Shown piece after piece: positions 1,355-43,160 of a DNA stretch of 43,656 nt (positions are counted from its first letter, which is position 1; each line of letters opens with the position of its first letter). The stretch covers positions 179,055 to 222,710 of the IMG/VR virus record IMGVR_UViG_3300010352_001565. The stretch is one strand, 5' to 3'. Both the position numbers and the translations under genes were made by a program. A model generated the notes under the pieces. It had not been told where the DNA came from. It saw only the letters and a list, made by a program, of their open reading frames with translations, and did no database searches. Source of the DNA: a virus.

Positions 1355-1357
1355 CTT

Positions 1358-1732
1358 ATGGAAAAGAAGAAATCGCCAGGTCAACTCGCGTACGAAGCCC
1401 ACCACGCTTACCTCAATAGCAACCCCGATTTCAGGTATGATTCTAAATCGCCTTGGGAGAACGCTACTGAGGATGTGAAAAAGGCATGGGAACTTGGCGC
1501 GGCTGCGTGCCGCCGTCCTTTGGCTGAAAAGCTCTACAGCGCGAGGCATTACGTTACCCGTCTCCTTATCTGCTATCGGGATCACCTACTTGGGACCTGG
1601 TACGAAGACACCGCAAAAGGATGCGGCATCTCCGCGGATGGATGCGGGTTTCTCGAGCACACCTACCGCTGGGACAATCCTGGCGATAAAGGTGCCGATA
1701 AGGTTGTGGATGCGCTTGCCAGTTCTGACTGA
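1358..1732 (+). CDS. hypothetical protein (124 aa) inside the amidoligase cluster
   Basis: The ATG is 4 nt after the upstream stop. Composition is coding-like. I recognise no motif. Confidence 0.5.
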   Translation: MEKKKSPGQLAYEAHHAYLNSNPDFRYDSKSPWENATEDVKKAWELGAAACRRPLAEKLYSARHYVTRLLICYRDHLLGTWYEDTAKGCGISADGCGFLEHTYRWDNPGDKGADKVVDALASSD

Positions 1733-1738
1733 CGTGAT

Positions 1739-3157: not shown

Positions 3158-3202
3158 ATAGTTGCAAAAAAGTGTTTACAATTTTCCGTGGCGTGATATA
3201 GT
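3155..3202 (+). promoter_or_regulatory. conserved phage promoter copy 2
   Basis: The sequence is aatagttgcaaaaaagTGTTTACAattttccgtggcgTGaTATAGT. An ATG at about 3209 opens a 14-codon leaderless mini-ORF that overlaps the start of the GATase gene. Confidence 0.65.
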
Positions 3203-3240
3203 AACAATATGAATTTTGAATTTAACCAAAAGGATAAACG

Positions 3241-11646: not shown

Positions 11647-12708
11647 ATGCCTAACAACGGACCCATACCTTCATACGCCAGTGAGAGACTCATTGGACTC
11701 GAGCTCGAGTACGACGCAAAAACCACCAAGCTCAGCTTGCCAACGACGACACCTTCTGGCTGGTCGCGGCAGTCTGACGGCAGCCTGCAGAATGGCGTTG
11801 AGATGGTGCTCAATCCTCCTCTGACGCTGACAGATGCAACTCCAGTGGTCAAAGAGTTCGCTGACGCTTTCAACCGAGCCCGGACAAACACCTTCAGCAG
11901 CGGCGGCTTCCACGTTCATGTTCAGGTTGCGGATTACACCGAGCATGACGCCGGAAATCTCGCTCGCCTCTACCACCATTTTCAGACGCAGATTAACCGG
12001 TTGCTTGGAAAATCTCGCCACAACAACCACTACTGCCCTCCGTTTACGCACTCCGTGACAGATGCCGATCTTTCGTCGAGATTTAATCTCGGCTCGCTTG
12101 CCAGCACGAGAGCCAGCGCCAAGTCTGCCCGCAAATACCAAGTGGTGAACTTCGCAATGATGCGGTGCACTCGCCACAGCGACCGCACGGTGGAATTTCG
12201 CCAAGGAAGCACCACAAAGCGGTTTGAGTGCATCATTGGCTGGGCGGCATTCTGCGTTGCCATGGTTGAAATCGCCAAGAACGACGCCATGACCAGCGCT
12301 TACATCGGTCAGCAAGCGTCGTGGGAAAACTTCGTGCAGATGCTTCGCGACCACGAATCCATGGTTGGTGCCAGCCACATTGCTGACTGGGTGGTTTGGA
12401 GACGCGAATATCTCGAAGAGACACCGAGCGACGAGCTCATCTCAAAAGCAGTTGCCGCTATGGGACGCCGTCCTCGCGGAATCTTTCACATCTCGCGCGC
12501 TCTCGACATCAACTTGCCGCTGAGCGAGCGGACTCTAAACGCCGCCGTTTCTCGCGGTCTGATTGCTAAGATCGGATCGAAATACCAAGCAAAGTTTGTC
12601 TCATTCGCGGGGTCAGATCTTGAGCAGCTTCAACAAGCCGCGGAAGCCAGGGAGGCAGCTATGCCCGCTGACCGCTCAGGCGAGGTTCTACCTGGAGAGG
12701 AACAATAA
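11647..12708 (+). CDS. amidoligase paralog C
   Basis: Carries IGLELEYD, GGFHVHVQV and VEFRQGSTT, the same three-motif architecture as ORFs 359-1354 and 1739-3157. Confidence 0.6.
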   Translation: MPNNGPIPSYASERLIGLELEYDAKTTKLSLPTTTPSGWSRQSDGSLQNGVEMVLNPPLTLTDATPVVKEFADAFNRARTNTFSSGGFHVHVQVADYTEHDAGNLARLYHHFQTQINRLLGKSRHNNHYCPPFTHSVTDADLSSRFNLGSLASTRASAKSARKYQVVNFAMMRCTRHSDRTVEFRQGSTTKRFECIIGWAAFCVAMVEIAKNDAMTSAYIGQQASWENFVQMLRDHESMVGASHIADWVVWRREYLEETPSDELISKAVAAMGRRPRGIFHISRALDINLPLSERTLNAAVSRGLIAKIGSKYQAKFVSFAGSDLEQLQQAAEAREAAMPADRSGEVLPGEEQ

Positions 12709-17538: not shown

Positions 17539-17975
17539 GCTACATCCTAGCCAGCAGATACGCAGGAATAACGACCATTCCGGTAAGCCTTCCTCAGCTT
17601 GAGCTGAGACCCGGAGACTCTGCTGTTGTTTCCATGCTTAAGATCGAGCAGAACCAGAAGATGATGCTGAGGTGGCTGAGTTTGAACCTTATCAAGCTTT
17701 GCGGGGTTAACGCTACAAACCCAACTCTTATCAACCCAGGTCTCGGGATAGTCTACGCTGGAGTCTACTCTTCTGGGTACAACTCGACGTATGGTCCGTG
17801 TGGAACTCCAATCGCTCTGGTTTCAGTAAAGTCCACAGGCACCTCAATGATTAACCCGTACCACCCTAGAAACTTTGAGAGTCCTGACACCTACTCAATT
17901 ATCGTGTCGAACAACACGCAGAGCACCACAGTTAACGTCGGAGTTTCAGGATCTATTCTGTACTACTTTTTATGA
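17535..17975 (+). CDS. hypothetical structural protein, paralog 2
   Basis: It is N-terminally similar to ORF 17056-17538. Confidence 0.5.
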   Translation: MSYILASRYAGITTIPVSLPQLELRPGDSAVVSMLKIEQNQKMMLRWLSLNLIKLCGVNATNPTLINPGLGIVYAGVYSSGYNSTYGPCGTPIALVSVKSTGTSMINPYHPRNFESPDTYSIIVSNNTQSTTVNVGVSGSILYYFL

Positions 17976-20900
17976 TACAGTCGGCAAGAGTCATAGCTCA
18001 AGCGGCGAGCATCCTGGCGCAGCAGTCGTCTGAGCCTGGTGTTGTTGCTGTTATCAACGCAGAAAATACCTCTCCGATCGTAATCACGACCGCTGAACCG
18101 ACTGGGCTTGCAACCGGGGACAAGGTCTCAGTTTCTGGAGTGCTTGGAAATCTTGCGGCAAACGTGACAGACTGCACCATCACAGTTCTGAGCTCGACAC
18201 GGTTCAGGCTTAACGGCACCACTGCGAGTGGCGCGTACACTTCTGGAGGGTGGGTTAGCGGCCACACTCTGTGTCCTGCGGCAACAACTGGGGACTTTAA
18301 TCCAACCACTTTTTCAAGGCGAGACAACGAGCTTCAGTACCGCGACCTCGTAGTTGCAGCCCACCTTATGGAGGTGTCAATGCGAGCGTCGACAGTGTGG
18401 TCGTTCGTCGCTCCGCGCATCCTCATACCGTCAGTTCCGTCTCCGAACCTCGACTATAAAACGCAAGATCTTGACGCGTCTCAAGCTGGAAAAGTTCTTC
18501 ACGTTCTGAACAGCTCGTTTCCAAGTGCCGCCGTAGCGACCGACAAGCAGCTTTATTACCGCGATACCATTCTCCTTGAAGCGCTTGCTCGAGCAGGTAA
18601 GGTGTTTGAGCCAGATTTTACGCTTCTTCCTGGAGGACAGCAGATCCCATCTGCAACAATATCCGATGCGTGGTCGCTCGCAGAAGGAGCACCTTCCAAT
18701 AGGAGCGTTTCAGGAGCGCACCAGCTCAACCGCGACTTGTTCAAAGTCCCTGACCAGAATCTTGCTGACCGTGACAACCAGATTGCGTCTGTTGCATCGC
18801 GTCTTATCGCCGTGCTGACAAGCCCGCTTGACTACGCAAACAGGCTATATGTCAAAATAGGAACGCGGGAACCTACTACGTTCGCCATTGTGGAGAATGA
18901 AAGCCGCGATGACACCAGAACGTGGGCTGGAATGCCGCAGTTATCAGCTGGAAGAAATCGACTGATCTACTCAAAGTCTCAGAAGACAATGACGTGGGTC
19001 CCTGAGGATGGGTCGGCGCCCATTGTTGCGCAGGCCGTCCCTCCGACGATGGACGCTAATGGATCCACAACTGCGATGACAGTCCAAAGCTCTGGAGGAT
19101 CCATGGACTTGGTAGCGAGCATCCCGGCGTCCCCGGATGCAGTAACCAGGCTAGATCGCGCGAAGCTTCTCAAATTTAGCGGGGCGTTGGAAATCGACGG
19201 AGTCTGCTACACTGGCGACGACTTTGGAGGTCCTCTTCTAGATGGAAGCAAGTGCCTCTACACCCCGTACAACATCAGCACCGGAGTCGGTTGGGGAGAG
19301 CTTCCAGCAGGAACTTATCGCGTTTCTATTCTTGTGCGACCAGGAAGCATCCTTGAATTTCCAGGAGCAAATCTGACTTCAGGCGCCTCGTACACATTTA
19401 CGCCTCTTATTTCGAGTAGCTCTTCTCGATGGAAGCTTTCCTTTGTCTACTCAAACTCTACCGCAACCTCATGCGAAGCTGGGACGTCTGGGGCTCCACA
19501 GATTCTATCCATTGTTGCTGGAAGTGGAACATCAAACCCTGTTTATTTCGATGGATCGCCGTTGCGCATCAAGCCTCTTAACGGAACTCTTAACATCAGC
19601 AAGGTGATCCTTACAGAAGAAAATTACACCGTAGATCCTCAGTACTCGATTCATGCTGTGCTTACGGATGACATGGGGTCGAACATGGGGTCGTCGCCCG
19701 TGGACATTACCATGTACGGGCGCCGCCAGCGGTACGACGTAGTAACGTTTGATTTTACAACAACGATCGCGTCAAGACACCCTATTTTGTGGCTTATCAC
19801 AGGAGTTCAACCATGCCCACTCGTGCTTAGCGCCATTCACATTCAGGCGGCAAACGCAGTGACTGGAACTCCCGAGACTGGAGGTCACGCCGCTTGGAAG
19901 TACGACTCCCTGATGAAAGCGCTCTCCGACGTCAAGGCATCGTACAGCCAGAAGATAAATTCTCCGATCGGTCAAGAGCACCAGCTTCCAGGGACTGACT
20001 ATTTCACAAACAGGTTTACACTGTCTTTCAACAAGTCGATCATACTGGCGGGATCTAACATCTCGTCGACCTCAGAGCCAGGAGAGCCAAATCATGGACC
20101 GCTCGGGGCGTATGGAGGAAAGTCGCTTTGGTGGGCGTGGACTGCTACGCACGACTGCACCGTCACGATCAACTACGACGGCAGTCTGATGGACGACGAA
20201 GGAGTGTGCTGGGCGTCTGTCGCGATATACACGGGAGAGTCGCTGCAGTCACTGCAAAGGGTGACAACGTCTTCTCCAGGACAAAATGCAATTTCATTCC
20301 AGGCAGTGAAAGGAACAGCGTACTCTATTGCAGTTGATGGAATTAACGGAGCATCCGGGTCGATCGTACTTGCCGTATCGCTAAGCACCGCCGCAAATAC
20401 CCTTCAGGAAAATGCGGTCCCGGTTTCAAACTTCTCCGTCCGTCAGCTTGTCAGCGAGACTCAGCTCTCGGTGCCGAACTACGCTTGGTACTTGTTCACC
20501 TCTCCGGTTAGCGGCTATGTGAAAGTGTACGTTGATGGAAGCGAAAATCAAGACAGCAGAAATCTTAAAGTCACTCAGAACGGAACAGACGTAGCCGCCG
20601 TTGTAACCACGTCAAGATCTATAGTGTTTAACGCTGAGTCTGGAGTTGACTACCTCATAAAGATAGGCGGCGATGGAAAGACCTGCCTTAGCATCTCCCC
20701 TTATTACTCGAACCCAGATGGAACGTGGGATAGGAACAGCATCGAGCGCTGGATGTCTGACATTGAGACGCTGCACGCGCGCATCAAGACAGCGTTCAGG
20801 CAGTCGCGCCCAGGCGACATCGGAAAACCGTGCCTGCTTCCCCGCGGTCTGTCGGTCACAGCTAACGGGTCTGTTCACGGAGAATACGGCTCTACTTGGA

Positions 20901-21028
20901 GCACTCCGACGATTGTGGCATTGCAGCCGTGGATGATTGCGATTGGAGCCTACGTGGCAGACCGCGAGTTCTGGCCAGCAGAAAGCACGATCGAGGTTTC
21001 GTCGATTACACAGGCTGGAATGCAGTAG
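17972..21028 (+). CDS. large S/T/G-rich virion protein, probably a tail fibre or receptor-binding protein
   Basis: It is 1018 aa, beta-rich and of low-charge composition. It is the last gene of a tightly coupled operon 16743-21028. I recognise no enzymatic motif. Confidence 0.4.
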   Translation: MIQSARVIAQAASILAQQSSEPGVVAVINAENTSPIVITTAEPTGLATGDKVSVSGVLGNLAANVTDCTITVLSSTRFRLNGTTASGAYTSGGWVSGHTLCPAATTGDFNPTTFSRRDNELQYRDLVVAAHLMEVSMRASTVWSFVAPRILIPSVPSPNLDYKTQDLDASQAGKVLHVLNSSFPSAAVATDKQLYYRDTILLEALARAGKVFEPDFTLLPGGQQIPSATISDAWSLAEGAPSNRSVSGAHQLNRDLFKVPDQNLADRDNQIASVASRLIAVLTSPLDYANRLYVKIGTREPTTFAIVENESRDDTRTWAGMPQLSAGRNRLIYSKSQKTMTWVPEDGSAPIVAQAVPPTMDANGSTTAMTVQSSGGSMDLVASIPASPDAVTRLDRAKLLKFSGALEIDGVCYTGDDFGGPLLDGSKCLYTPYNISTGVGWGELPAGTYRVSILVRPGSILEFPGANLTSGASYTFTPLISSSSSRWKLSFVYSNSTATSCEAGTSGAPQILSIVAGSGTSNPVYFDGSPLRIKPLNGTLNISKVILTEENYTVDPQYSIHAVLTDDMGSNMGSSPVDITMYGRRQRYDVVTFDFTTTIASRHPILWLITGVQPCPLVLSAIHIQAANAVTGTPETGGHAAWKYDSLMKALSDVKASYSQKINSPIGQEHQLPGTDYFTNRFTLSFNKSIILAGSNISSTSEPGEPNHGPLGAYGGKSLWWAWTATHDCTVTINYDGSLMDDEGVCWASVAIYTGESLQSLQRVTTSSPGQNAISFQAVKGTAYSIAVDGINGASGSIVLAVSLSTAANTLQENAVPVSNFSVRQLVSETQLSVPNYAWYLFTSPVSGYVKVYVDGSENQDSRNLKVTQNGTDVAAVVTTSRSIVFNAESGVDYLIKIGGDGKTCLSISPYYSNPDGTWDRNSIERWMSDIETLHARIKTAFRQSRPGDIGKPCLLPRGLSVTANGSVHGEYGSTWSTPTIVALQPWMIAIGAYVADREFWPAESTIEVSSITQAGMQ

Positions 21029-27520: not shown

Positions 27521-27907
27521 GTGTCTGAACCGGCCGCTGATCAAACCATGCGGCTGTACGCCATCGCTCATGCCAACCTCGGCATGGGAACTGGCAAACT
27601 CGCTTCTCAATGCGGTCACGCATTCACTGAAGCGCTTCTTCACTCACAAGAGTTTCAACCTGCTCGTTTTAAGGAATACCGCTCAGACGGGATGGGCACT
27701 AAAGTGGCCCTCTCTGCGAATTCCACCGACGAGATCCACAGCATCAAGTCCAAGTGCGACGAAGCTGGCATTCCGGCGACGATCATCACGGATTCTGGGT
27801 GTGCTAATTTCTTCAACGGAGCCCCGACGATAACCGCCATCGGCGTGGGACCTGCGAAGAGACACGAAGTCAAAAAGATCCTCGGGCGGTTAAAACTGAT
27901 CAACTGA
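27521..27907 (+). CDS. peptidyl-tRNA hydrolase, PTH2 family
   Basis: LGMGTGKLASQCGHA and GTKVAL...GIPATIITDSGCANFFNGAPTITAIGVGP...ILGRLKL align motif by motif with archaeal and eukaryotic PTH2 (LGMGKGKVAAQCSHAA ... [21 protein letters not shown]...VTGHLKL). The track start is a GTG. The first ATG is at about 27548 and has no obvious SD. Confidence 0.8.
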   Translation: MSEPAADQTMRLYAIAHANLGMGTGKLASQCGHAFTEALLHSQEFQPARFKEYRSDGMGTKVALSANSTDEIHSIKSKCDEAGIPATIITDSGCANFFNGAPTITAIGVGPAKRHEVKKILGRLKLIN

Positions 27908-31893: not shown

Positions 31894-32186
31894 AGGCTTG
31901 CGCTGTAAGATTCTCCTTCATCTTCATCGTCGGAGCAAACGGCCACTCCTCGGAGCGGCTGGAAGTGCGATGACAGCTCAGGATTTCCAATCCTCTCAAA
32001 ACTTCTGCGATCCCGTCTTGGCCCTTCGAACTGTTGGATTGGCTGGGCAACCGGGACAAGCTTCTTTTTGCGCTCCACGAAATGGATCAGGACGGCGTAC
32101 GGACTGCGCGAGATGTCGTGCTCTGACAGCATGCGGACGATTTCAAGTGACTCTTCGGCGTTTTTAGGACGTTGGCGTTGTTTCAT
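31890..32186 (-). CDS. hypothetical protein downstream of the HNH gene
   Basis: It overlaps the 3' end of the HNH gene by 23 nt. I recognise no motif. Confidence 0.3.
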   Translation of the reverse strand: MKQRQRPKNAEESLEIVRMLSEHDISRSPYAVLIHFVERKKKLVPVAQPIQQFEGPRRDRRSFERIGNPELSSHFQPLRGVAVCSDDEDEGESYSASL

Positions 32187-32607
32187 GGTCGCAAAGAACT
32201 GGTTGAATTGAACTTAGACGCGCGCGCAAATCACTTTCGATTGCCGCGACTGTGTCGTTACTGAGAACAAAAGGCTGTTTGGCCTTAACTATCAGCTCAT
32301 CGCAGCGTTCATTTCCAATTGTTTGCCTTAACCACGCTACCGATTCCAATGGGCTTCCATGCCAGCTTGTCCCTCGCTTCTTATGGCACGAAAAGCATAG
32401 CGCAACGGCGTTGGAGGGATCCCAGCGGAGCACTAGGATCTCGCGTGGGATGATGTGGGAGGTGTCTACCTTAACATCTGGAACTCCGCGCCCGCACCAC
32501 TGGCAGACCCGGTCGTCGCGCTCTAGGATGAGCTGGGAGAATAACCGGTCAAGCTTCCGCTTGGCTTTTGCAGGGTTTAGCTTCTTGGGCTTTTTAGATT
32601 TCGCCAT
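32164..32607 (-). CDS. HNH homing endonuclease
   Basis: CQWCG ... HIIP ... N ... LCFSCH (the HNH and zinc ligands). The N-terminus is basic. Confidence 0.75.
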   Translation of the reverse strand: MAKSKKPKKLNPAKAKRKLDRLFSQLILERDDRVCQWCGRGVPDVKVDTSHIIPREILVLRWDPSNAVALCFSCHKKRGTSWHGSPLESVAWLRQTIGNERCDELIVKAKQPFVLSNDTVAAIESDLRARLSSIQPVLCDHETTPTS

Positions 32608-33629: not shown

Positions 33630-34454
33630 ATGAGTGCTGAGCCACTTCAAACGTCCGCCAATAGCCCAGATTCGCTTCCGCTGGTCGGTTACACAATCGA
33701 CCAGCTTAAAGCTTATATCCTTCGATCGCTTGGATCTCCGATGTGGAGCGTGGAGGTCACCCAACAGCAAGTCCTTGATTGCATAAACGACGCGCTTGGG
33801 AAGTTTTCTCAGTGGTGCCCTCAGCCAAAGTTTGGGTCGGTCAAGATGGTTGAGGGCCAATCAGCCTACCTCAAAGGAGTCGACGTTGGCCAGGGAATCG
33901 CCCAGATTGACTTTGTCGAGCCGATGCCGCTCCAGTACGAGCTCTTCTACGGCAACCTTTTCAACAACGGTCCGCTTGTTGGACGCGGTCTCGAGGAGAT
34001 GGACATGTGGCTCAGGTGGAGAAAGACCTGGAAGCGGGTCATGTCAGTTCAGCCAGACTGGATCTACGACGAGGTCAACAGGGTCCTTCTGATACACAAT
34101 CCGATTGACCGGTACCATGCAGGGATCATTTGTTACGGCAACTATGAGCGGACAGAGCGCCTGCCAATGACAGGAGCCCAGTGGGTCAAGGAGTTTGCCC
34201 TAGAGAAAGCCCGGTACCAGTATGGCGAGAATATGTCCAAGTTCAGCGGCGCCATTCCTGGTCCGCTTAAAGACCTTCAGATGGACACCTCCAAGCGCGA
34301 CAAAGCCGAAGCCCGCATGGAGAAGCTGCTCGAGAAGCTCCAGGGAATGCAGACCAGCACCCCCATCATGATCGATACCATCTTAGCTTTACTGATTCCA
34401 GCAGGCTTGGCAGTATCTAGTCTGTGGAATACTATGTTTACGAGTTGGTGTTAA
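33630..34454 (+). CDS. hypothetical protein (274 aa), possibly virion-associated
   Basis: I recognise no motif. The CCCTA-gtatt-TAGGG hairpin lies just upstream. Confidence 0.45.
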   Translation: MSAEPLQTSANSPDSLPLVGYTIDQLKAYILRSLGSPMWSVEVTQQQVLDCINDALGKFSQWCPQPKFGSVKMVEGQSAYLKGVDVGQGIAQIDFVEPMPLQYELFYGNLFNNGPLVGRGLEEMDMWLRWRKTWKRVMSVQPDWIYDEVNRVLLIHNPIDRYHAGIICYGNYERTERLPMTGAQWVKEFALEKARYQYGENMSKFSGAIPGPLKDLQMDTSKRDKAEARMEKLLEKLQGMQTSTPIMIDTILALLIPAGLAVSSLWNTMFTSWC

Positions 34455-35287
34455 TGCCTGACAACCGCGTCCTTTACGTCGGAAAAGGACACGGTTCGCG
34501 GATGAGTTTTCACCAAAAAGTTATTGACCATCCTCAAAATAAGCTGAATCAGCGTCCGATGTACCAAGGGCTGCGCGCTGAGCTCACACCTGGAAAGTCG
34601 TTTATCGCGCGAAAGGTGTTTGAGTCCGCCGACGAGATCGTGTGCCTTCTCGAAGAGCAACGGCGAATCCACGAATACGGATTCGATAATCTGTTAAACG
34701 TGGCTTCTCACGCCTTCACTGGACGCCGAATGAAACCAGCTGTTGGAAGGCTTATCGCTTCTAAGCTCAAAGCCTATGTTCAACGCTGTCGCGATCAGTA
34801 CGGATCTGGGCACCCTCCAGAAGTTGCTGCCAAAATCGCGGCGTCAAACCGCGGAAAGCAGCTAAGCTCAGAGCACATTCAGAAAATTCGTGATCTCCAT
34901 GCGTCTGGAAAGATGGACCACGTTCATGTTGTGTTTACTGACGCCGGACGCCGAGCGCAGTCTGAACGCGGCTTCTCTGAAGAGCACCGCAAGGCGCTGT
35001 CCATATCCTGCCGCGGTAGGAAGTACCCAAACAGAAGGCGTCCTGGAATCATTCAAAAACAGGATAAAATGAGGTACAAAGGAGTGTCGCTGTTTAAAGG
35101 AAAGTGGGTGGCTAGGATCACAATCGAAGGCAAGGTAAAGATGGTTGGAGTGAGGTCAGATGACCGCCAAGCAGCCGTGCTGTACGACAACGCGGCTGAG
35201 AAGCTGTTCGGAAAGAGACCGAACGCCACAGAGCGCTCAGAGCAGGTCCAATCTGCGTGGGCAACGGCGTCAAGTTTGAAATGGTAG
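34424..35287 (+). CDS. GIY-YIG homing endonuclease with NUMOD3 and AP2 DNA-binding domains
   Basis: The N-terminus YYVYELV...NRVLYVGKG is GIY-YIG-like. KIAASNRGKQLSSEHIQKI is NUMOD3-like. YKGVSLFKGKWVARITIEGKVKMVGVRSDDRQAAVLYDNAA is an AP2 domain. The start is a GTG that overlaps the upstream gene by 31 nt. Confidence 0.7.
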   Translation: MEYYVYELVLMPDNRVLYVGKGHGSRMSFHQKVIDHPQNKLNQRPMYQGLRAELTPGKSFIARKVFESADEIVCLLEEQRRIHEYGFDNLLNVASHAFTGRRMKPAVGRLIASKLKAYVQRCRDQYGSGHPPEVAAKIAASNRGKQLSSEHIQKIRDLHASGKMDHVHVVFTDAGRRAQSERGFSEEHRKALSISCRGRKYPNRRRPGIIQKQDKMRYKGVSLFKGKWVARITIEGKVKMVGVRSDDRQAAVLYDNAAEKLFGKRPNATERSEQVQSAWATASSLKW

Positions 35288-35302: not shown

Positions 35303-35345
35303 AATACTAAAAAGTGTTTACAAAATGCTGAAAGCGTGATATAGT
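35303..35345 (+). promoter_or_regulatory. conserved phage promoter copy 6
   Basis: actaaaaagTGTTTACAaaatgctgaaagcgTGaTATAGT. The spacer is 17 bp. Confidence 0.65.
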
Positions 35346-35364
35346 GGGTGCGTGAAGAAATAGC

Positions 35365-35952
35365 ATGAGAATCGACGACTACATCTTGCAGTGCGGTGTT
35401 CGATCGCTGTGCGAATCTGAGTCTTCAGATACGCCTCCGACGCCGCAAGAAGTGGCTGAACTCTTGGCCTACCTTCGGAAGTTCAAGCTGAACCCTGTCA
35501 TTGTCGGTGGAGTCGCCGTGTTCCACCACTTGAAGTCGGCTAAGTCAAGCGATTTCCGTCCTACTGTGGACATCGACGTCCATGTCACCAGGCCTCTTCC
35601 TCCTCCGCCTTCCGGGTGGAGTGACAACAACCATGAAGGAATTGACAGCTGGAAAAGCCCGTCTGGCGGCAACGTCGATTTTATCATCGGCGGTCAGGTC
35701 CTGTCTGGGACGTATCGCACTCTAAAGAGTGTCAAGGTAGCTCCAGATTCACCCCAGGAGTATCCTGTGGCTGCGCTTGATGACTTGCTAAGGATGAAGC
35801 TTGGGACCTTCAGAGAGAAGGACCAGAGAGATCTTATCTCGCTTGCTCACGCCTATGAGTTTCCTGAGCTCAGCGGACTGACAAGGAATCAGAAAGAAGA
35901 CTACGACTTCTTCAAAGGTTACGCAGCGAGCATCAAGGCGCGGAAGGAGTAG
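35365..35952 (+). CDS. nucleotidyltransferase-fold protein (AbiEii / DUF1814 / MNT-like)
   Basis: VIVGGVAVFHHLKSAKSSDFRPTVDIDV matches the Pol-beta superfamily hG[GS]...D.D signature, with AbiEii-like spacing. It is the first gene after an early promoter. Confidence 0.4.
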   Translation: MRIDDYILQCGVRSLCESESSDTPPTPQEVAELLAYLRKFKLNPVIVGGVAVFHHLKSAKSSDFRPTVDIDVHVTRPLPPPPSGWSDNNHEGIDSWKSPSGGNVDFIIGGQVLSGTYRTLKSVKVAPDSPQEYPVAALDDLLRMKLGTFREKDQRDLISLAHAYEFPELSGLTRNQKEDYDFFKGYAASIKARKE

Positions 35953-36205
35953 TAGGAGGTTCGGCTTTGGCTTTCACCGGAGGTTGCTCGGCTTTCACCG
36001 CGGTAACCTCATTCACCAGCTCTTGGTAGTCTGCGATAATGGCTTGGGCTTCCTGAAGCATCGCCGCAGTCATGATCATCACATTGGCTCTAGCATTAAA
36101 TTGTGCGGCGCGGCGGCCAAGAGTTAGTTTATCCACATTCTTTAGAACATGTCGATTAAATTTTCGCTGTGCTACACGTCGTGCAGAGCGCACCTGATCA
36201 AGCAA
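35933..36205 (-). CDS. possible small minus-strand protein in the gap upstream of the GT2 gene
   Basis: The plus strand has a 195-bp ORF-free gap here. The minus ORF has a coiled-coil-like sequence. Its low-complexity end overlaps the stop of the NTase gene. Confidence 0.25.
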   Translation of the reverse strand: MLDQVRSARRVAQRKFNRHVLKNVDKLTLGRRAAQFNARANVMIMTAAMLQEAQAIIADYQELVNEVTAVKAEQPPVKAKAEPPTTPSAP

Positions 36206-37747
36206 ACCGTTAACCTCTGGAAATCCAGGGCAAAAGATCCCAGCCAGGTCGAGGTCATCGTTGCTGTCGATGCCACTGATACAGCCGGCATCGAGGTCTG
36301 CGAGCAGATGAGAAAGAGCAACGGAGACAACGACACGTTCGACTTCGTTATCCAGGGGTCAGAGCCGTTCAATTGCGTCAAGGGCTGGAACCTTGCAGCT
36401 GAATACTGCCGCGGCGACGTCCTGATCGCGATCTCTGATGACTTCTCACCTCCTGGACACTGGGACTCTCAGCTCATCGGAAGCTTAAGACCTGGATGGT
36501 GGTCTGAAGAGTGCGTGGTCCACGTAAACGATGGCTATGTGAAGACCATATGCACTCTTCCGATTATCACCAGAAAGCGCTATGACAAGTTTGGGTACAT
36601 CTACCACCCAAGATACCAGTCGATGTTCTGCGACACTGAGCTTACAGAGCGCGCATACCAAGACGGAGTGGTTATCGAAGCCATGCACCTCCTGTTTGAA
36701 CACGAGCACCCTGACTGTGGCAAGCGGTCCGGAGACGCTTTTGACGCCCACCACGCTTCAAAACAGAGGTGGAACGAGGGAGAGGCGATTTTCAACGAGA
36801 GGAAGAAACTCGGTTTCCCAAGTGACTCTGAGCTTGAGCAGCGCAACTCGTTTGTGGCATATTTCCAAGTCACGAAAGATGACTTCTGCTTGCTTGAAGT
36901 TTGCTTGAGGCTTGTCAGCGAGGGAGTAAAGTCGTTCCGGTTCTGCATCCCAAGCGAGTACTGGTCTGGAAAGGTGGTAAGCCAAGAAGAAATCGCGCAG
37001 GTCGAAGACGTTCATAAGCGCCTGGTCGCTGACGGACTCAACTCAAAGCTGAAGATCTTTGACGTCAAGAGTCACCGCACAGGAAAGGGACTGCTGGTAG
37101 ACGTTGAGGCCGGTGTCCGTAATGATTCTCTGGAGTGGATCCGCAGCGACGGCTTTAAGCACATCCTCGTGGTTGATGGGGACGAGCTATGGCGCACTGG
37201 GACGCTCACGCTAATCCAGCGCTGCATTAACAGCGTTCAACCGGATTCCATCAGCTGCAGGTGCATTCCAACCATCGGCCTTCCAGGACTTCCGATCGAA
37301 GGGGCTCAGGATCTCGTTGGGGTGTACATCGGAAACGGAAAAATCTTCGATAGCTGCAGGACTCCTCGCGGGAACAAGAAAGCTCTGATTGACTCGCATA
37401 ACGTCATCCATTTTACAGCCACGCGGAAAACGATGGATGAGATCATCAAGAAGCACCGAGAATCAGGTCACTACGACGACCCAAACTACGACTTCGAGGG
37501 ATGGATCTCCAGAGTGCTTCCAAACGTGCATCCAGGGATGCGCAACGCCCACATGTACAGGCCTTACCAAATCTGGCCGTTGATCAGAGCATGGACTGAC
37601 GATGAACTCGCAGACATCCCTGAATCAGTTAAAAAGTACCTTTCGCTCGCTAAGCTTGAACCTGTAAAGACTGCCAAGCAGCCAAAACGCCGCATGATAC
37701 CGTTTGCGGAGTCCCTGTCGCGCCCCAGCAACTACCGGCACGTCTAA
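36149..37747 (+). CDS. GT-A fold (GT2-like) glycosyltransferase with a C-terminal extension
   Basis: N-terminal SIKFSLCYTS ... EVIVAVDATD ... KGWNLAAEYCRGDVLIAISDDF matches the GT2 NxGxAxARNxGxxxAxGxYIxFLDxDD block. It is 532 aa. A second DGDE lies in the C-terminal half. Confidence 0.55.
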   Translation: MSIKFSLCYTSCRAHLIKQTVNLWKSRAKDPSQVEVIVAVDATDTAGIEVCEQMRKSNGDNDTFDFVIQGSEPFNCVKGWNLAAEYCRGDVLIAISDDFSPPGHWDSQLIGSLRPGWWSEECVVHVNDGYVKTICTLPIITRKRYDKFGYIYHPRYQSMFCDTELTERAYQDGVVIEAMHLLFEHEHPDCGKRSGDAFDAHHASKQRWNEGEAIFNERKKLGFPSDSELEQRNSFVAYFQVTKDDFCLLEVCLRLVSEGVKSFRFCIPSEYWSGKVVSQEEIAQVEDVHKRLVADGLNSKLKIFDVKSHRTGKGLLVDVEAGVRNDSLEWIRSDGFKHILVVDGDELWRTGTLTLIQRCINSVQPDSISCRCIPTIGLPGLPIEGAQDLVGVYIGNGKIFDSCRTPRGNKKALIDSHNVIHFTATRKTMDEIIKKHRESGHYDDPNYDFEGWISRVLPNVHPGMRNAHMYRPYQIWPLIRAWTDDELADIPESVKKYLSLAKLEPVKTAKQPKRRMIPFAESLSRPSNYRHV

Positions 37748-37992
37748 TGGACACCGACCACCTCATTTGGGAAGAGAAGAAGATCCTCGACGACTTAAGA
37801 GACTTAAGGCCAGGAGAGATCAAGCTATGGACGCTTATAAACAAAGCCTCGGCTGATCTTCCAAACCTCGGTCAAACCGCTCGTGAGAATCGCCAGGTGG
37901 TGACGTCGCTAGTTAGCCGACTCATGCGCGAGAAAAAGATCAAGCGAAACAGAAAAACAAACATGGTTCGCATTAGCGAGGTCTTCGCATGA
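37747..37992 (+). CDS. small basic protein (81 aa), possible winged-helix regulator
   Basis: A TAATG overlap couples it to the GT2 gene. The helix-turn-like segment is KLWTLINKASADLPNLGQTARENRQVVTSLVSRL. Confidence 0.35.
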   Translation: MDTDHLIWEEKKILDDLRDLRPGEIKLWTLINKASADLPNLGQTARENRQVVTSLVSRLMREKKIKRNRKTNMVRISEVFA

Positions 37993-38005
37993 AGTTCTTT
38001 TAGCA

Positions 38006-39262
38006 ATGAGCGACACCAAAAAACGCACCCCTCACAATTCTCAGTGGTCAATCGTAACTCTTAAAGAGCCAGTCCTGTGGTCCAGGACGGACAGCGAAGT
38101 GTGGATGCTGAATCCAACAGTTCGATACGTCATGAACTCAGATCAGCTCGAGCACCTCAACCACCTTGTTGACACTTGCTCAGACCTGCGAAATTCCGCG
38201 TTCCACAAGCCTCTTAACGGCCTTGCGAATCTCGCTCAGAAAAAGATTCTTGTCGAGCGCTATCGCGGACGCGGAGTCGGAGACCTGCTATTCATGACAG
38301 GTCCTCTGAATTACATCCGGCACATTTCAGGACACAGCGCGAAAATAGAGTTTTATGCTCTCGCTGAGAGGTCGCAAGTTCTCCAGCTGCATCCCGCTCT
38401 CGCTCACAAGAGCACGCTTGCTGGACCGCTGATCTACGACACCATCAACCAGTATGACTACCAGTGGTTCTCGGACTGCGTAACTGAATACGACGAAGAG
38501 AAGGATCAGCTCAACGTGTACGACGCGCTGTTCAAGCAAATCGGCATCGATCCGCAGAGCGTCGGAGCAGAGTTCAAGCGACCAAGCATTCACCTTGACG
38601 AACAGGACTTCGCGAATCTTGACACTTTCTACTACTTTGTATATGGAGATCGGCACATCGACTTGCGCAAGACAGGCTACTACGTGGTGGCTCCTCTGAG
38701 CAATGGGACGCTGAGATCGCTGCCGTACGCCTCCTGGCTAGAAATCATCTCTGAGCTGTCGAAGAAGCGCCCTGTAGTTGTGATCGGCCAGATGTCTGAA
38801 AGAGTTCCTCCGATGGACATGACTGGTGGAGAATTCTACTCCCAGGTTAACCAGCTTGCTCCGAACGTTATCAATGCCATGGGAAACACCCAGCTTCGCG
38901 TCGTGTCAGCCATTATCGCGAGAGCAACTGGCGTGGTGTGCCTGGACTCTGGCCCACTCTATATTAGCCAAGCTTTGCGCACGCCTGCCATCTCAATCTG
39001 GGGACCGCATCATCCTGGCGTTCGCATCGGATACGACAAGGACTACATGGAGCTTGCTATCTGGAATTCGAGTGCATGCAGCTACGCACCGTGCTTCGCG
39101 TACCACGGGTTTCCGACTCAAAAATGCCCACAAGGAGATTCTCAGCGCATTTGCGAAGTTCTAAAGGTCTCGCCCGTCGAAAGCGTGATAAATAAGCTTG
39201 AGAAAATCGAATCTGGAAATCCGTCCGTCACATCTTTCAAGGCCGCTAAACCCACCAAGTAA
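38006..39262 (+). CDS. GT9-family (ADP-heptose:LPS heptosyltransferase-like, GT-B fold) glycosyltransferase
   Basis: GVGDLLFMTGPL is the GT9 N-terminal motif. NAMGNTQLRVVSAIIARATGVVCLDSGPLYISQALRTPAISIWGPHHP matches the RfaF/WaaC C-terminal donor-binding block. Confidence 0.6.
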   Translation: MSDTKKRTPHNSQWSIVTLKEPVLWSRTDSEVWMLNPTVRYVMNSDQLEHLNHLVDTCSDLRNSAFHKPLNGLANLAQKKILVERYRGRGVGDLLFMTGPLNYIRHISGHSAKIEFYALAERSQVLQLHPALAHKSTLAGPLIYDTINQYDYQWFSDCVTEYDEEKDQLNVYDALFKQIGIDPQSVGAEFKRPSIHLDEQDFANLDTFYYFVYGDRHIDLRKTGYYVVAPLSNGTLRSLPYASWLEIISELSKKRPVVVIGQMSERVPPMDMTGGEFYSQVNQLAPNVINAMGNTQLRVVSAIIARATGVVCLDSGPLYISQALRTPAISIWGPHHPGVRIGYDKDYMELAIWNSSACSYAPCFAYHGFPTQKCPQGDSQRICEVLKVSPVESVINKLEKIESGNPSVTSFKAAKPTK

Positions 39263-39263
39263 T

Positions 39264-39722
39264 ATGCCTGAGCGCGAACTACCACAGCTTCCTCCCATTG
39301 ACATGGGAGATGACTTTAAATTGGATCTGTCATACTATTTGACCCAAAGCTACGACGACATAGGGCAGGCTTCAAGCGAGCTCCCTGCGGTCATCGAGTG
39401 GGTCAACATGAAGCTCCAGGAGATGGTTGAATCTCGGCTGATCGCGAAACAGCGCATAAAGGAGCTTGAAGCTGAAGCCTACTTCGATCTTAAAGGAGGA
39501 AGGTTTGCTGAGAATTACTCAGACAAGATGACAGAGACCTCCTTGGCGATGGCTGTAGCGCTTGACGAAAAGGTCAAATCAGCTCACCGAAAGCATGCTG
39601 TTCTGGCTGGGTGGGTTGAAAGACTGTCAAATTTACAAGGTTCTCTCGTGGCGAAGCTTGACCTTACTCGGTCATCCGAAGCCACTCGCCGCCAACTGAT
39701 AAGCAAACACGATTCTGAATAG
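39264..39722 (+). CDS. hypothetical protein (152 aa) ending in TAG, in frame with the SSB gene
   Basis: The ATG at 39264 follows the GT9 stop. The track ORF 39198-39722 overlaps the GT9 gene. Confidence 0.45.
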   Translation: MPERELPQLPPIDMGDDFKLDLSYYLTQSYDDIGQASSELPAVIEWVNMKLQEMVESRLIAKQRIKELEAEAYFDLKGGRFAENYSDKMTETSLAMAVALDEKVKSAHRKHAVLAGWVERLSNLQGSLVAKLDLTRSSEATRRQLISKHDSE

Positions 39723-39731
39723 TACAAATTT

Positions 39732-41243
39732 ATGAGTAATCAAGAAAAAAGTCCAGCATATCTGTCTCTCCTCGAGGAAGAGACAAGTTACATGCAAGCT
39801 AACACCTCTAACAAGGTGAAGCGCATCAAGATCCCTCTCGGACACGCGTGGCTCATGCGGTTCCTTCCGGTTGAACTGGGCCCGCGCAAATCGTTTTTTG
39901 CTCGCGTCGCAAATCACTGGGTTAATCGCCGTCCCATTCCTTGCCGACGCCACACTCATCCCGACTTTGGCGGAGACCCTCACGCTCCCTGCGCCATGTG
40001 CGATGCTTCCGAAGAGCTTAATGGCCACGGATCTCAGCGCATCTCGTCGATTGGATACGGCGCGCGGTCCATCAGCCAGTGGGTTTTGTTCGCACTGGTC
40101 TTCGAAAAAGATGACGGCGAGCGCAGCGACGTTATTAAAGCTCCTGACATGTGGGACGCTCATGAGTTTCAGATCACGAAAAACTCGTTTGAGGATCTCC
40201 TGAGCATCTTCAGAAAGGGAACGCGCCGCTGCCCGCTGAGCATCCTTGACCTCGTTCAAGGTCAGGACATTTGGGTTACGCAGAAGAAAACTGGCATACG
40301 CTTCGCTCCTGAAATGCCGAGCGCGATAACCAACAACCAAGACAAGATGCAGTCGATCGTCGACAAAATCTGGTCCGGAATTAAGTTCCAAGAGCCAAAG
40401 TTCCTTAGCTCTCGCGAACTTGAAGACGCCGCTGACAAGCTGCGAGACTCAGCTGAAGACGCTGGTCGTGGCCGTGGAGACGACCGTGATCGTGGTCGCC
40501 GAGGTGAAGACGAAGTTGAAGACTACGGGCGCGGACGCCGAGACGACAGAGGTCGCGGGCGCGACGATGACCGCGGAAGTCGCGGGCGTGACGACGATCG
40601 AAGCAGGGGCGGATACGACTCTGAAGACGATGCTCCTCGCGGGCGTCGCGGCGATGACGCTCCTCGCAGCAGGCGCGGAGAAGATGACGATGCTCCTCGC
40701 GGGCGCCGTGGAGATGATGAAGATGCTCCTCGCGGACGACGCGAAGAAGAGCCAAGAGGCCGGCACGACGACGAAGATGACGCTCCTCGCGGGAGGCGCG
40801 AGCGAGACGCCGATTCCGGACGAGATGACCGAGGGCGCGAAGATGACGACCGTGGGTCAAGAGGACGCAGTGACGATCGAGGACGCGGCGAAGACGACAA
40901 CGAAGAACGCTCTGCTCCGTCTGCTTCTCGCCGAAGCATGACTCCTCCGTCGGTGTCTCAGACTCCGCGCCAGGCACCTCCGTCTGCTTCAAAAACGCTT
41001 CCTCCTCCACCTGCGCGCGGCGGGACTAACGGAGCGCAAGAGCAGTCGATTGATGATGACGAAGCCATTCCAGAGGAACGCAGAGATCCCGCTCCTCCAG
41101 AGTCTATGCCAGAGCCCGAGCCTGAAGCTCAAGCTCCTGCAGACGCTCCTCCGCCCGTGGCTGCAGCTGGCGCTACGCCGTCAGCTCCCCGCTTGTCGCA
41201 GCGCATCCGCTCTGGAATAAACAGCCTTGACACCAGGAAATAA
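39732..41243 (+). CDS. T4 gp32-like zinc-binding ssDNA-binding protein with a long RG/D-rich disordered C-terminal tail
   Basis: RFLP at residues 43-46. Zinc ligands C71, H74/H76, C87 and C90 (CRRHTHPDFGGDPHAPCAMC); C87 and C90 are exactly as in gp32. The tail (residues 245-392) contains six DDAPRGRRG(D/E)D repeats. Confidence 0.65.
   Translation: MSNQEKSPAYLSLLEEETSYMQANTSNKVKRIKIPLGHAWLMRFLPVELGPRKSFFARVANHWVNRRPIPCRRHTHPDFGGDPHAPCAMCDASEELNGHGSQRISSIGYGARSISQWVLFALVFEKDDGERSDVIKAPDMWDAHEFQITKNSFEDLLSIFRKGTRRCPLSILDLVQGQDIWVTQKKTGIRFAPEMPSAITNNQDKMQSIVDKIWSGIKFQEPKFLSSRELEDAADKLRDSAEDAGRGRGDDRDRGRRGEDEVEDYGRGRRDDRGRGRDDDRGSRGRDDDRSRGGYDSEDDAPRGRRGDDAPRSRRGEDDDAPRGRRGDDEDAPRGRREEEPRGRHDDEDDAPRGRRERDADSGRDDRGREDDDRGSRGRSDDRGRGEDDNEERSAPSASRRSMTPPSVSQTPRQAPPSASKTLPPPPARGGTNGAQEQSIDDDEAIPEERRDPAPPESMPEPEPEAQAPADAPPPVAAAGATPSAPRLSQRIRSGINSLDTRK
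40464..40908 (+). repeat. imperfect tandem ~33-bp repeats in coding sequence (gacgatgctcctcgcgggcgccgtggagatgat) encoding the SSB tail
   Basis: All six frames are open here, which explains the spurious overlapping ORFs 40405-41010(-), 40523-40939(-) and 40420-40941(+). Confidence 0.55.
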
Positions 41244-41245
41244 AT

Positions 41246-42643
41246 ATGGCCAAAGCTGCGCCTGAAAAGCCAACGAAGCCAACCAAGAAACTCAAGGCTG
41301 GCTTCTCTAACAGCGACCTTAAAGATCGAATCGTAGCCAGCGTCAAGAGGATTGCTCCTCGCAATAAAGACGCTGGATCTATTGAGGTTTGCCGCACTAA
41401 CAAGGAAATCTTGTCAAGGGTTCGCTACGTCCTGACCACTGGCATAAAGCCATTCGACGATGCTGTCGGCGGTTTTCCATTTGGACGCGTAGTCGAGCTC
41501 TACGGGTTGGAGTCTTGCGGTAAGACTGCAGTCTGCATGCGCTCTGCAGTCAGAGCTCAGAAGCGTGAGATCTACGAGCGCATCAAAGTCGAGGACACCG
41601 AAAAGATCGAGTATGTCTTGCGCAAGATCCCGAATGACGCTGACGTGACAGTGCTCTACATTGACAACGAGCAGTCCCTTGAAGATGACGAGAAGATTGT
41701 CATTGAGGACGTTGAAATCGATGCCGTGCTTGCTCGCTGCGACACCGTGGAGCTTCTGTTCAAGACGATTGACAAGACTCTCGACGAGATCTCAGCGTTC
41801 GAGAAACAGACTGGACGCCAGCAGTTCGTGGTAGTCATCGTAGACACCATCGCAGGAACATCTTCGAAAGAAGAAATGACGAAGGACTGGGGAAAAGACG
41901 ACTACTCTCGCCAGCCAAAGCAGCTCCGCGAAGCGTTCCGCAGAATGACGCGCAAGATCAACCGCCAGAACGTCTGCATGATCTGCACCAACCAGGTGTC
42001 GGACTCTTACAAGGCCGCCCAGGCTGGAAAGAAGGGTAACAAGTCGACGCTTCCACGAGACCAGGACTTCTCAACGTTCGGTGGAAGGGCACTGAAGTTC
42101 TACGCGACTGTCCGCATCTTCATGTTCAAGATTCCTGACGTCAAGTATACGCTTGTCAAAGGAGCCCAGTTTGCCGCTGGTTTCTTGGTGGGTTTCTTCA
42201 CATCAAAAAACAGGCAGGTAAAACCGCTGCGCGAAGGTCGCATGGCGCTGCTATTCGATCGCGGGCTTGATAACACATTCAGCATCCTTGAGAGCTTGAT
42301 CTACTACGGATTCGCGGTGTATGACAAGGAAAATGGAGGTTACGCGTTCAGGTTTAACGCTTGGAAGATTCCAATGACCACCTTCGGTGGGTCTAACGCG
42401 ATTGACCTTGAAGAGGGAGATGCTGCTGAGGAGGAAAGCCGATCAGAGCGCAAGAAGAATCCGCGCATCGAATCTCGAGCTGAATGGCCCGCGTTTTACG
42501 AGGCCCACAAAGCAGACTTCGACGCCATGTGGGCTGCGGCAAAGAATTACATCTTCGCCACTGAGGGCATTGGCGGTTTCGTTGCTTCTCGCGAAGATGC
42601 AGAAGATGACACCGACGCTGACAGCACTGTAGTTGAAGATTGA
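41246..42643 (+). CDS. RecA/UvsX-like recombinase
   Basis: LTTGIKPFDDAVGGFPFGRVVELYGLESCGKT is the RecA P-loop signature. VVVIVDTIAGT is Walker-B-like. The C-terminal tail is acidic. Confidence 0.7.
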   Translation: MAKAAPEKPTKPTKKLKAGFSNSDLKDRIVASVKRIAPRNKDAGSIEVCRTNKEILSRVRYVLTTGIKPFDDAVGGFPFGRVVELYGLESCGKTAVCMRSAVRAQKREIYERIKVEDTEKIEYVLRKIPNDADVTVLYIDNEQSLEDDEKIVIEDVEIDAVLARCDTVELLFKTIDKTLDEISAFEKQTGRQQFVVVIVDTIAGTSSKEEMTKDWGKDDYSRQPKQLREAFRRMTRKINRQNVCMICTNQVSDSYKAAQAGKKGNKSTLPRDQDFSTFGGRALKFYATVRIFMFKIPDVKYTLVKGAQFAAGFLVGFFTSKNRQVKPLREGRMALLFDRGLDNTFSILESLIYYGFAVYDKENGGYAFRFNAWKIPMTTFGGSNAIDLEEGDAAEEESRSERKKNPRIESRAEWPAFYEAHKADFDAMWAAAKNYIFATEGIGGFVASREDAEDDTDADSTVVED

Positions 42644-42644
42644 T

Positions 42645-43160
42645 ATGCCAAGAATTATTGAATACGAAGACTCTCCCGACCTTCAGACGATGATCGTCGG
42701 GATGGTAACCAACACATCCTACGCCGAATTTGCTCCTCTACGCGAGCATGAAGTGCGAATCACATCATGCTTCAAGTGCGCGTACAAGGAGCAGTCGGAG
42801 GATGCTGACCCACAAACTGCTATCTCTGGGCCGCACCCAGCGAAGCTCCAGCAATTCAAAGGTCCGATCAAGCTGCAAGTCAGCTCAGACTACTGCGTTG
42901 TCATGGACTACTGCTTCTGGTTGAATGCTCCTCAGAACAAGAAGGTGGCGGCAGTTCACCACGCGCTGATGCAGATCGAGGTGCGCACAAAGCGTGAAAC
43001 CGTAGAGCTCAAGACCCGCAGACCGGATGTCGTTGAGTTCTCGCACACCATCACGCGGTTTGCCAACGACGTGGACTCCATATCTGGACTCCTACCGGTC
43101 CTCATGCAAGCTGGTGAGCGCTTCCGCGCGCAAATCAGTTCTAACCAGCAGACCGCTTAA
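42645..43160 (+). CDS. hypothetical protein (171 aa), possibly a recombination accessory protein
   Basis: The ATG is 2 nt after the recA-like stop. The track start at 42633 is a TTG. Confidence 0.45.
   Translation: MPRIIEYEDSPDLQTMIVGMVTNTSYAEFAPLREHEVRITSCFKCAYKEQSEDADPQTAISGPHPAKLQQFKGPIKLQVSSDYCVVMDYCFWLNAPQNKKVAAVHHALMQIEVRTKRETVELKTRRPDVVEFSHTITRFANDVDSISGLLPVLMQAGERFRAQISSNQQTA

Follow-up and report, generated by a model that had tools for sequence, protein, structure and literature searches.

Two tandem glycosyltransferase (GT) genes lie on the plus strand of a 43,656-nt stretch of viral DNA (IMG/VR record IMGVR_UViG_3300010352_001565, positions 179,055 to 222,710; this whole stretch is hereafter the window). 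The first open reading frame (ORF), at 36149-37747, encodes a GT2-like protein of 532 aa, and the second, at 38006-39262, encodes a GT9-type protein of 418 aa; both were found where a prediction made from the letters of the DNA (the original prediction) had placed them. We consider it probable, at roughly 0.62, that the pair glycosylate DNA, assembling several sugars into a glycan on 5-hydroxymethylcytosine (5hmC) of the phage genome; that DNA is the acceptor, how many sugars are added and in what order, and from which donors, we infer. We favor this reading because the same phage encodes a predicted dCMP hydroxymethylase (dCH), because two related loci (L028 and L081) hold dCH and the pair in a single cluster, and because the pair is packed together with the UvsX gene in a replication module. 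It also draws on the lack of a hydrophobic segment in either protein, on inteins that mark the GT2-like gene as conserved and important, and on the published phage DNA glycosyltransferases. The latter were recruited from lipopolysaccharide (LPS)- and teichoic-acid-type GT families and act in series, producing mono- to trisaccharides, including heptose and Kdo (3-deoxy-D-manno-oct-2-ulosonic acid), on 5hmC (bioRxiv 10.1101/2023.12.21.572611).

In the pathway we propose, soluble cytoplasmic GTs would act on the phage's own DNA. A cytosine-specific thymidylate synthase (TS) homologue of the dCMP-hydroxymethylase type would generate 5-hydroxymethyl-dCMP, which a deoxynucleoside monophosphate (dNMP) kinase would then phosphorylate, leading to its incorporation as 5hmC. 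Following replication, the GT2-like protein, through both of its GT-A domains, and the GT-B enzyme of GT9 type would add a multi-sugar glycan to the hydroxymethyl group, and in some lineages an FkbM-type methyltransferase would probably O-methylate this glycan. The likely benefit would be the one known from T-even phages, the shielding of phage DNA from host nucleases. Glycosylation of DNA bases had been one of the options offered in the original prediction, in agreement with the reading we favor.

Linkage of the pair to a predicted dCMP hydroxymethylase

A contig identical to the window across 11,354 nt and extending upstream of it (L033) encodes a 271-aa TS homologue (L033 608-1423) that lies ~8.2 kb ahead of the window's first letter and ~44 kb upstream of the GT pair. 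The best solved relatives of this protein are the CMP hydroxymethylase MilA (E 2e-13) and the dCMP hydroxymethylase gp42 of phage T4 (E 2e-12), whereas a true thymidylate synthase matches at just E 2e-6. One of its Asp residues, Asp214, lines up with T4 Asp179, on which the switch in specificity from uracil to cytosine depends, and chains carrying the D179N mutation score lower against it. Among 25 homologues, neither this Asp nor the catalytic Cys183 varies. The dCH proteins of GT9-bearing genomes do not form a subgroup of their own. A dCH match and a GT2-like match lie on contigs of the same length (5,504 bp), but these come from different samples and the agreement is a coincidence. Because MilA and gp42 are its best solved relatives, and because the cytosine-specificity Asp and the invariant catalytic Cys are present, this phage is predicted very probably to make 5-hydroxymethyl-dCMP.

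The linkage between dCH and the GT pair is direct in a 225-kb IMG/VR genome (L028). Its gene order is dCMP deaminase and, further along, GT2-like, dCH, FkbM methyltransferase, a fusion of a dNMP kinase with a uracil-DNA-glycosylase (UDG)-superfamily domain, and GT9; dCH reads into the GT2-like gene, its stop codon overlapping the GT2-like start (tgATG). The GT2-like protein of this genome is a full-length orthologue of the one in the window (47% identity, E 2e-173). Locus L081, which was retrieved through dCH alone, repeats this cluster, although protein identity between L081 and L028 is just 59-77% and their DNA cannot be aligned. One more long contig, the only other one open to testing (L027 and L068; 230 kb), holds both dCH and the cassette, ~47 kb apart, a spacing like that in this phage. 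In a third arrangement, the L008 group, a dCMP deaminase flanks the cassette, and in L017 GT9 lies beside the DNA polymerase A (PolA) gene and an FkbM gene. Published TS-type pathways show an association with genes for dCMP deaminase and polymerases (bioRxiv 10.1101/2023.12.21.572611).

Two of these neighbors have features of their own. Beside dCH, the P-loop dNMP-kinase domain is fused to the UDG-superfamily domain at L028 8127-9203 (minus strand), L081 4138-5199 (plus strand) and L033 3-602 (a partial gene). The FkbM-family methyltransferase adjoins GT9 or the GT2-like gene at L017 9124-9732 (minus strand), L028 7372-7962 (plus strand), L081 5369-5959 (minus strand) and L025 7537-8019 (minus strand), and its position next to the GT genes suggests O-methylated sugars.

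Both GT genes are real and conserved rather than chance ORFs: GT9 has 374 homologues and the GT2-like protein 352, each at ~45-60% identity. We compared synteny across 33 loci representing about 19 distinct lineages. GT9 directly follows the GT2-like gene in 16 lineages, and the block composed of GT9, p152, p503 and UvsX is kept in 20-23 of the 33 loci. Across these loci, the neighbors of GT9 are the GT2-like gene, p152, p503 and UvsX, or else dCH, the kinase and FkbM. Profile hidden Markov model (HMM) scans show that the window also encodes PolA, DnaB, another helicase and an NAD ligase, which together with UvsX make up a replication and DNA-metabolism module.

Architecture of the two glycosyltransferases

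The assignment of the downstream protein to GT9 holds, including both signature blocks that had been claimed for it. It matches Pfam PF01075 (Glyco_transf_9) over aa 212-350 at 45.6 bits (cutoff 22), and among the matches listed, 120 of 120 homologues carry the same family. An AlphaFold2 (AF2) model built on 31 homologues has a mean predicted local distance difference test score (pLDDT) of 86.8 and a predicted template modeling score (pTM) of 0.87; it has a GT-B fold whose nearest structural neighbors are GT9 structures. The catalytic core (aa 79-418, 38240..39262) contains the GT9 motifs. In its N-lobe, G92-D93 (nt 38279-38284) is invariant in the 31 homologues, and by position D93 would be the equivalent of WaaC D13 and TibC D110. 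In its C-lobe, D314-S-G-P-L-Y319 (nt 38945-38962) and W332-G-P-H-H-P are invariant or nearly so in the same set; this block aligns to WaaF and WaaC, and the His of the family's donor motif (D-(S/T)-G-x-x-H, with G-P-x-x-P) is replaced by Tyr (DSGPLY). The core also contains R237. If family membership is the guide, the donor would be ADP-heptose.

Two elements are added to this core. An N-terminal beta-rich domain (aa 1-78, 38006..38239; AF2 strands at 14-19, 23-28, 31-35, 41-44 and 55-60) is not found in LPS heptosyltransferases and would correspond in position to the beta-barrel at the N terminus of TibC. An invariant Cys4 motif, C358-x4-C363-x10-C374-P-x-G-x2-Q-x2-C383 (39077..39154), follows the last GT9 motif and precedes the C-terminal helix; it is a probable metal-binding knuckle. 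As to the start codon, a JGI gene call (P0001, 385 aa) begins at Met34, but we prefer the 418-aa form starting at 38006, since homologues are conserved from P9-H-N-S-Q-W onward (window 38006-38104).

We compared this architecture with two groups of known enzymes. WaaC and WaaF (CAZy GT9) share the fold and both family motifs and rank high among the matches by sequence as well as by structure. At 14-18% identity, however, they lack the beta domain, the Cys4 knuckle and the His-to-Tyr change, and unlike them the window's GT9 is phage-encoded and linked to DNA-metabolism genes. Because the NCBIfam heptosyltransferase equivalog models score only 17-30 bits against cutoffs of 135-569, the protein is predicted not to be an orthologue of WaaC, WaaF or WaaQ. 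TibC and AAH, of the bacterial autotransporter heptosyltransferase (BAHT) family, appear to share the module order of N-terminal beta domain, GT-B core with the catalytic Asp, and Cys4 motif before the C-terminal helix; in TibC these are a beta-barrel at 1-97, Asp110 and a Cys4 iron finger at C339/342/358/370 (PMC4358343). The Cys spacing differs, x4/x10/x8 in the phage protein and x2/x15/x11 in TibC, and TibC is not structurally closer to the phage model than 3tov or WaaF. We take the likeness to TibC for a resemblance rather than for membership of its family.

The upstream protein had been described as a GT2-like enzyme, which is right as to family; rather than a simple GT2, however, it contains two separately folding GT-A-like domains. 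The N-terminal domain (aa 1-228, 36149..36832) has a GT-A fold with an acidic motif after beta4. Its score against Pfam GT2 (PF00535) is 23.0 bits, just under the cutoff of 23.3; precomputed PF00535 annotations exist for many homologues, and the protein matches the glycosyltransferase family PHROG 14945 (E 2e-11). Invariant positions include R13, D41, a DxD-type D97-D98 (nt 36437-36442) and the block S158-M-F-C-D162-T-E (nt 36620-36640), which is the probable catalytic-base region.

The second domain (aa 229-505, 36833..37663) is putatively assigned as GT-A-like from the AF2 model, in which the whole 532-aa protein has a pTM of 0.59 and forms two separate domains. Its secondary structure runs beta-alpha-beta-alpha-beta-alpha-beta-DxD and belongs to no named family; D343-G-D345-E346 (nt 37175-37186), directly after the fourth beta strand, and H421, H441 and H468 are invariant. 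Only 3 of 18 members of this domain touch PF00535, faintly (best E 0.0036). Sequence-profile searches against the PDB with the whole GT2-like protein and with each domain gave zero matches, and the two domains are unrelated in sequence when aligned with hhalign. The second domain acts as an independent module: in L022-L026 it is a separate ORF, the GT2-like protein being split at the domain boundary into 226 aa and 274 aa; P0161 carries an extra N-terminal copy of it; and an exhaustive profile search found stand-alone proteins of 260-300 aa. This search returned just 155 cluster representatives among 1.84 billion. Its weakest matches found no assignment; they include P0467, which has no PDB relative, and P0470, an unassigned N-domain fused to TPR repeats. 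A disordered, basic C-terminal tail (aa 506-532, 37664..37747 with the stop codon; pLDDT <50) is variable, being absent or different in most homologues. We considered a conserved C-terminal peptide as a clamp- or partner-binding motif and rejected this, the peptide being confined to one sub-clade.

Inteins interrupt four GT2-like homologues (P0133, P0137, P0164 and P0192), all at F160|C161 within S-M-F-C-D-T-E, equivalent to 36626-36629 in the window. A LAGLIDADG homing endonuclease is present in two of these inteins; the other two are mini-inteins. The shared site marks a conserved, functionally critical position in the protein. A glycosyltransferase that hosts inteins seems unusual. Neither the GT2-like protein nor GT9 contains a hydrophobic segment of transmembrane grade.

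Candidate acceptors of the glycan

A comparison with known DNA glycosylation systems reveals both likenesses and differences. As in T4, an Asp-type TS homologue is predicted to make 5-hydroxymethyl-dCMP, the GT genes stand among early DNA-metabolism genes just ahead of uvsX, and the accompanying genes include (here, in relatives) a dCMP deaminase and a dNMP kinase. The T4 order 42 (dCH), beta-gt, segA (GIY-YIG) and uvsX parallels the GT-to-UvsX linkage described here, with a GIY-YIG gene nearby in both. Unlike the GT63/GT72-type enzymes of T4, which are absent from our top structural matches, the transferases here pair two GT-A domains in one protein with a GT-B enzyme of GT9 type, three modules in all, so that the product is probably an oligosaccharide; also unlike T4, the kinase carries a fused UDG-like domain. 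Glycosylation clusters known from metaviromes (Pyle et al., bioRxiv 10.1101/2023.12.21.572611) and from arabinosyl-5-hydroxycytosine (5hoC) phages (PMC13326640) use GT-B enzymes that resemble T4 beta-GT, BshA or MshA rather than GT9. Their heptose pathway comes with its own sugar-activating enzymes, they include no described fusion of two GT-A domains, and they contrast with the 44 kb that separate our pair from the hydroxymethylase. HMM scans of the window found no sugar-nucleotide synthesis genes.

Several lines of evidence weigh against DNA as the acceptor. The functional call is one of guilt by association; two relatives make that association strongly, but it is indirect here, where dCH is distant from the pair. 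Genome-wide co-occurrence of dCH and cassette comes from few genomes, namely two long ones and two clustered loci. The dCH family is far wider than the cassette (377 versus 22 IMG/VR loci), and most of its top loci are on ~170-kb contigs in which GT9 was not found. Another glycosyltransferase, a 515-aa DUF5672+GT90 protein encoded 3 kb from dCH (L033 4698-6245), could be the primary DNA enzyme instead. We found no homology of the pair to an experimentally shown DNA glycosyltransferase, and a GT9 enzyme acting on DNA is not described in bioRxiv 10.1101/2023.12.21.572611 or PMC13326640. Finally, in TibC the counterparts of the beta domain and Cys4 knuckle serve a protein substrate.

A TibC- or AAH-like protein heptosyltransferase, aided by the GT-A domains and modifying a phage protein, whether part of the virion or one that binds DNA, such as the RG/D-rich p503, is a rival that we judge unlikely. 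The module order of GT9 appears to match that of TibC down to an Asp ~13 residues into the N-lobe, and a Foldseek search recovers TibC at E 3.5e-11 over a nearly full-length alignment, against 1.3e-11 for the best LPS-type GT9. A gp13-like neck gene lies upstream of the pair in most lineages, and in mycobacteriophages GTs encoded by the phage are known to glycosylate the virion (cited in PMC12619734). However, a substrate gene is not linked to the pair, none of the 33 loci having an autotransporter (beta-helix) gene beside GT9, and the specific linkage is instead to nucleotide metabolism.

There is also a slim chance that the acceptor is another soluble molecule, such as a nucleotide or a modified dNMP before its incorporation, or that the pair belongs to an unrelated pathway sharing the replication module. 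Linkage to dCH and the dNMP kinase would fit action on nucleotides equally, and the same phage encodes four amidoligases and a glutamine-amidotransferase-like protein. Yet each characterized sugar hypermodification of phages described in bioRxiv 10.1101/2023.12.21.572611 and PMC13326640 is installed on DNA after incorporation, and a polymerase would need to accept bulky glycosylated dNTPs.

Remodeling of the host envelope, in which GT9 would extend the LPS inner core with heptose and the GT2-like protein would supply further sugars, for instance to block superinfection, is very improbable: although WaaF, WaaC and a Veillonella GT9 are the nearest enzymes of solved structure, databases and a study of wastewater huge phages (PMC10747093) label such genes LPS heptosyltransferase auxiliary metabolic genes (AMGs), and the same phage encodes a PG_binding_1+GT2 protein, the equivalog scores lie far below cutoff (for example 30 versus 135 bits), no lipid-carrier or membrane feature is present, a syntenic clade gene of ~50% identity at a replication-module site with an intein-hosting partner is atypical for a host-derived auxiliary gene, and why the genes are coupled to those for dCH, dNMP kinase and dCMP deaminase is left unexplained. 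The literal reading of GT9 as an LPS heptosyltransferase is therefore unlikely, and the remark in the original prediction that a GT9 enzyme is an odd choice for a phage stands.

Returning to DNA glycosylation, a more specific version appears doubtful to us. GT9 would be a DNA heptosyltransferase drawing on the host ADP-heptose pool, with its beta domain and Cys4 knuckle assembling around or tracking DNA. Together with the GT-A domains, and FkbM in some lineages, it would place a partly O-methylated glycan of at least three sugars on every 5hmC of a ~220-kb genome. DNA glycosylation would in that case gain both an enzyme family and an architecture new to it.

The PG_binding_1+GT2 protein, a further GT of 577 aa, is encoded ~11 kb downstream of the GT2-like gene (L004 21360-21599, running off the locus). 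The four Amidoligase_2 proteins, one with a WGR domain, and the class-II glutamine-amidotransferase-like protein are encoded at window 359-4278 and 11647-12708 and at L033 1476-2456. One amidoligase lies within a few genes of dCH in this phage, in L068 and in L077-L085. The amidoligases could be a second base-modification layer or an unrelated peptide-ligation system.

Genomic setting and significance of the pair

The phage clade that carries the pair is uncultured, comprises huge phages of ~200-250 kb and has no cultured model. An identical copy of GT9 is found on a 222.7-kb contig, and homologues occur on contigs up to 251 kb. We conclude that a cultured model is lacking because the DNA of the GT region and the GT9 protein gave zero matches to 50,697 deposited phage genomes, the GT2-like protein gave weak N-domain matches only (HTVC008M and Streptomyces phages), and among cultured phages the best match to the window's DNA polymerase reaches ~25% identity. 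The 'moraphage' lineage of PMC12619734 is a different one and encodes PolB. Look-ups of P0001 and of the 175-aa metallopeptidase ORF returned no record.

Downstream of GT9 are p152 (39264-39722) and p503 (39732-41243), both conserved in this position, a UvsX/RecA-like recombinase (41246-42643) and a phage metallopeptidase (42645-43160), the last two identified by HMM and all on the plus strand. We treat these genes (39264..43160) as DNA-metabolism context and do not claim them as parts of a glycosylation system. The p503 protein, kept in position in 23 of the 33 loci, has a Cys/His-rich N-terminal half and a long, repetitive Arg/Gly/Asp-rich tail (DDAPRGRRG units, 40405-41010). No solved relative was found for p152 or p503, and p503 has no detectable homologue of known function; UvsY-like and gp32-like labels for these proteins were rejected as unsupported, solved relatives being absent.

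The original prediction had placed the pair in one promoter-driven operon together with an AbiEii-like nucleotidyltransferase (NTase) and a small putative winged helix-turn-helix (wHTH) gene. The promoter exists. A ~40-nt repeat occurs in seven plus-strand copies (~308, 3159, 11369, 26093, 29489, 35309 and 43173), with 0.00 copies of the exact pattern expected by chance. It combines an upstream element rich in A with an extended -10 (TTGCAAAWAARTGTTTACAAATTT-N-CGTGATATAGT), and is probably a phage early promoter class read by host RNA polymerase. Copy 6 (35309..35346, plus strand; sigma70-like, AAAAAGTGTTTACA-N17-TGATATAGT with the extended -10) lies ahead of the NTase gene and is the nearest upstream promoter of the series NTase, GT2-like, sm81, GT9, p152, p503, UvsX and metallopeptidase. 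The genes from 36149 to 43160 are all co-directional, with every gap at most 13 nt and no terminator predicted; given this direction and spacing, co-transcription from the GT2-like gene through the metallopeptidase is plausible in this phage. A sigma70-like promoter ahead of the GT2-like gene is not conserved in relatives, however, so the operon claim extends to this phage and not to them.

The NTase ORF and the small ORF are both present, but their labels found no support, nor did their membership in a conserved module. The NTase has a sub-threshold match to DUF6036 (21.3 versus 23.6 bits), and PADLOC returned no AbiEii or other match for it or for any cassette protein. The small ORF, sm81 (37747..37992, plus strand), encodes a net basic protein of 81 aa and at its start shares 1 nt with the GT2-like stop codon; it has zero matches in Pfam, PHROGs, NCBIfam and PADLOC, so that no HMM supports a wHTH. 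The NTase gene and a GIY-YIG/AP2 gene lie upstream of the pair only in this phage's own copies and are missing there in all distant relatives, one of which has the NTase at another place. Among the 15 lineages with adjacent GT genes, sm81 is present in seven and absent in eight, where the GT genes are 2-27 nt apart; it is accessory rather than core. Since the NTase is missing from distant relatives and sm81 from 8 of 15 lineages, both lie outside the conserved module.

Two endonuclease genes are inserted near the neck gene: the GIY-YIG/AP2-type homing endonuclease at window 34424-35287 and an HNH endonuclease at 32164-32607 (minus strand), which is absent from the otherwise identical contig L004. 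An antisense ORF of 48-90 aa (35933-36205, minus strand) lies in the 196-nt gap between the NTase and GT2-like genes and overlaps the GT2-like start; it is confined to the copies from this phage itself and may be spurious. The minus-strand gene of 86-145 aa that occurs upstream of the GT2-like gene in relatives is not present in the window. Elsewhere in the window are a PTH2-type peptidyl-tRNA hydrolase (27521-27907, 84 bits) and a 1018-aa protein (17972-21028) with a borderline ubiquitin-E1 FCCH-like segment (29.3 bits, cutoff 29.5).

Sugar hypermodification of 5hmC is already known; what would be new, if our reading is true, are the GT9 enzyme, the fused double GT-A protein and the uncultured huge-phage clade that carries them. 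A complex glycan on 5hmC would then occur in widespread, uncultured phages of ~200-250 kb, and both the label 'ADP-heptose:LPS heptosyltransferase' and the reading of these genes as AMGs of host metabolism would mislead. Heavy glycosylation of DNA would affect sequencing, assembly and restriction-based methods for such phages, and the enzymes would be candidate tools for DNA labeling. The presence of TibC-like modules on a probable DNA enzyme also raises a testable question, namely how a GT scaffold that serves lipids or proteins becomes retargeted to DNA.

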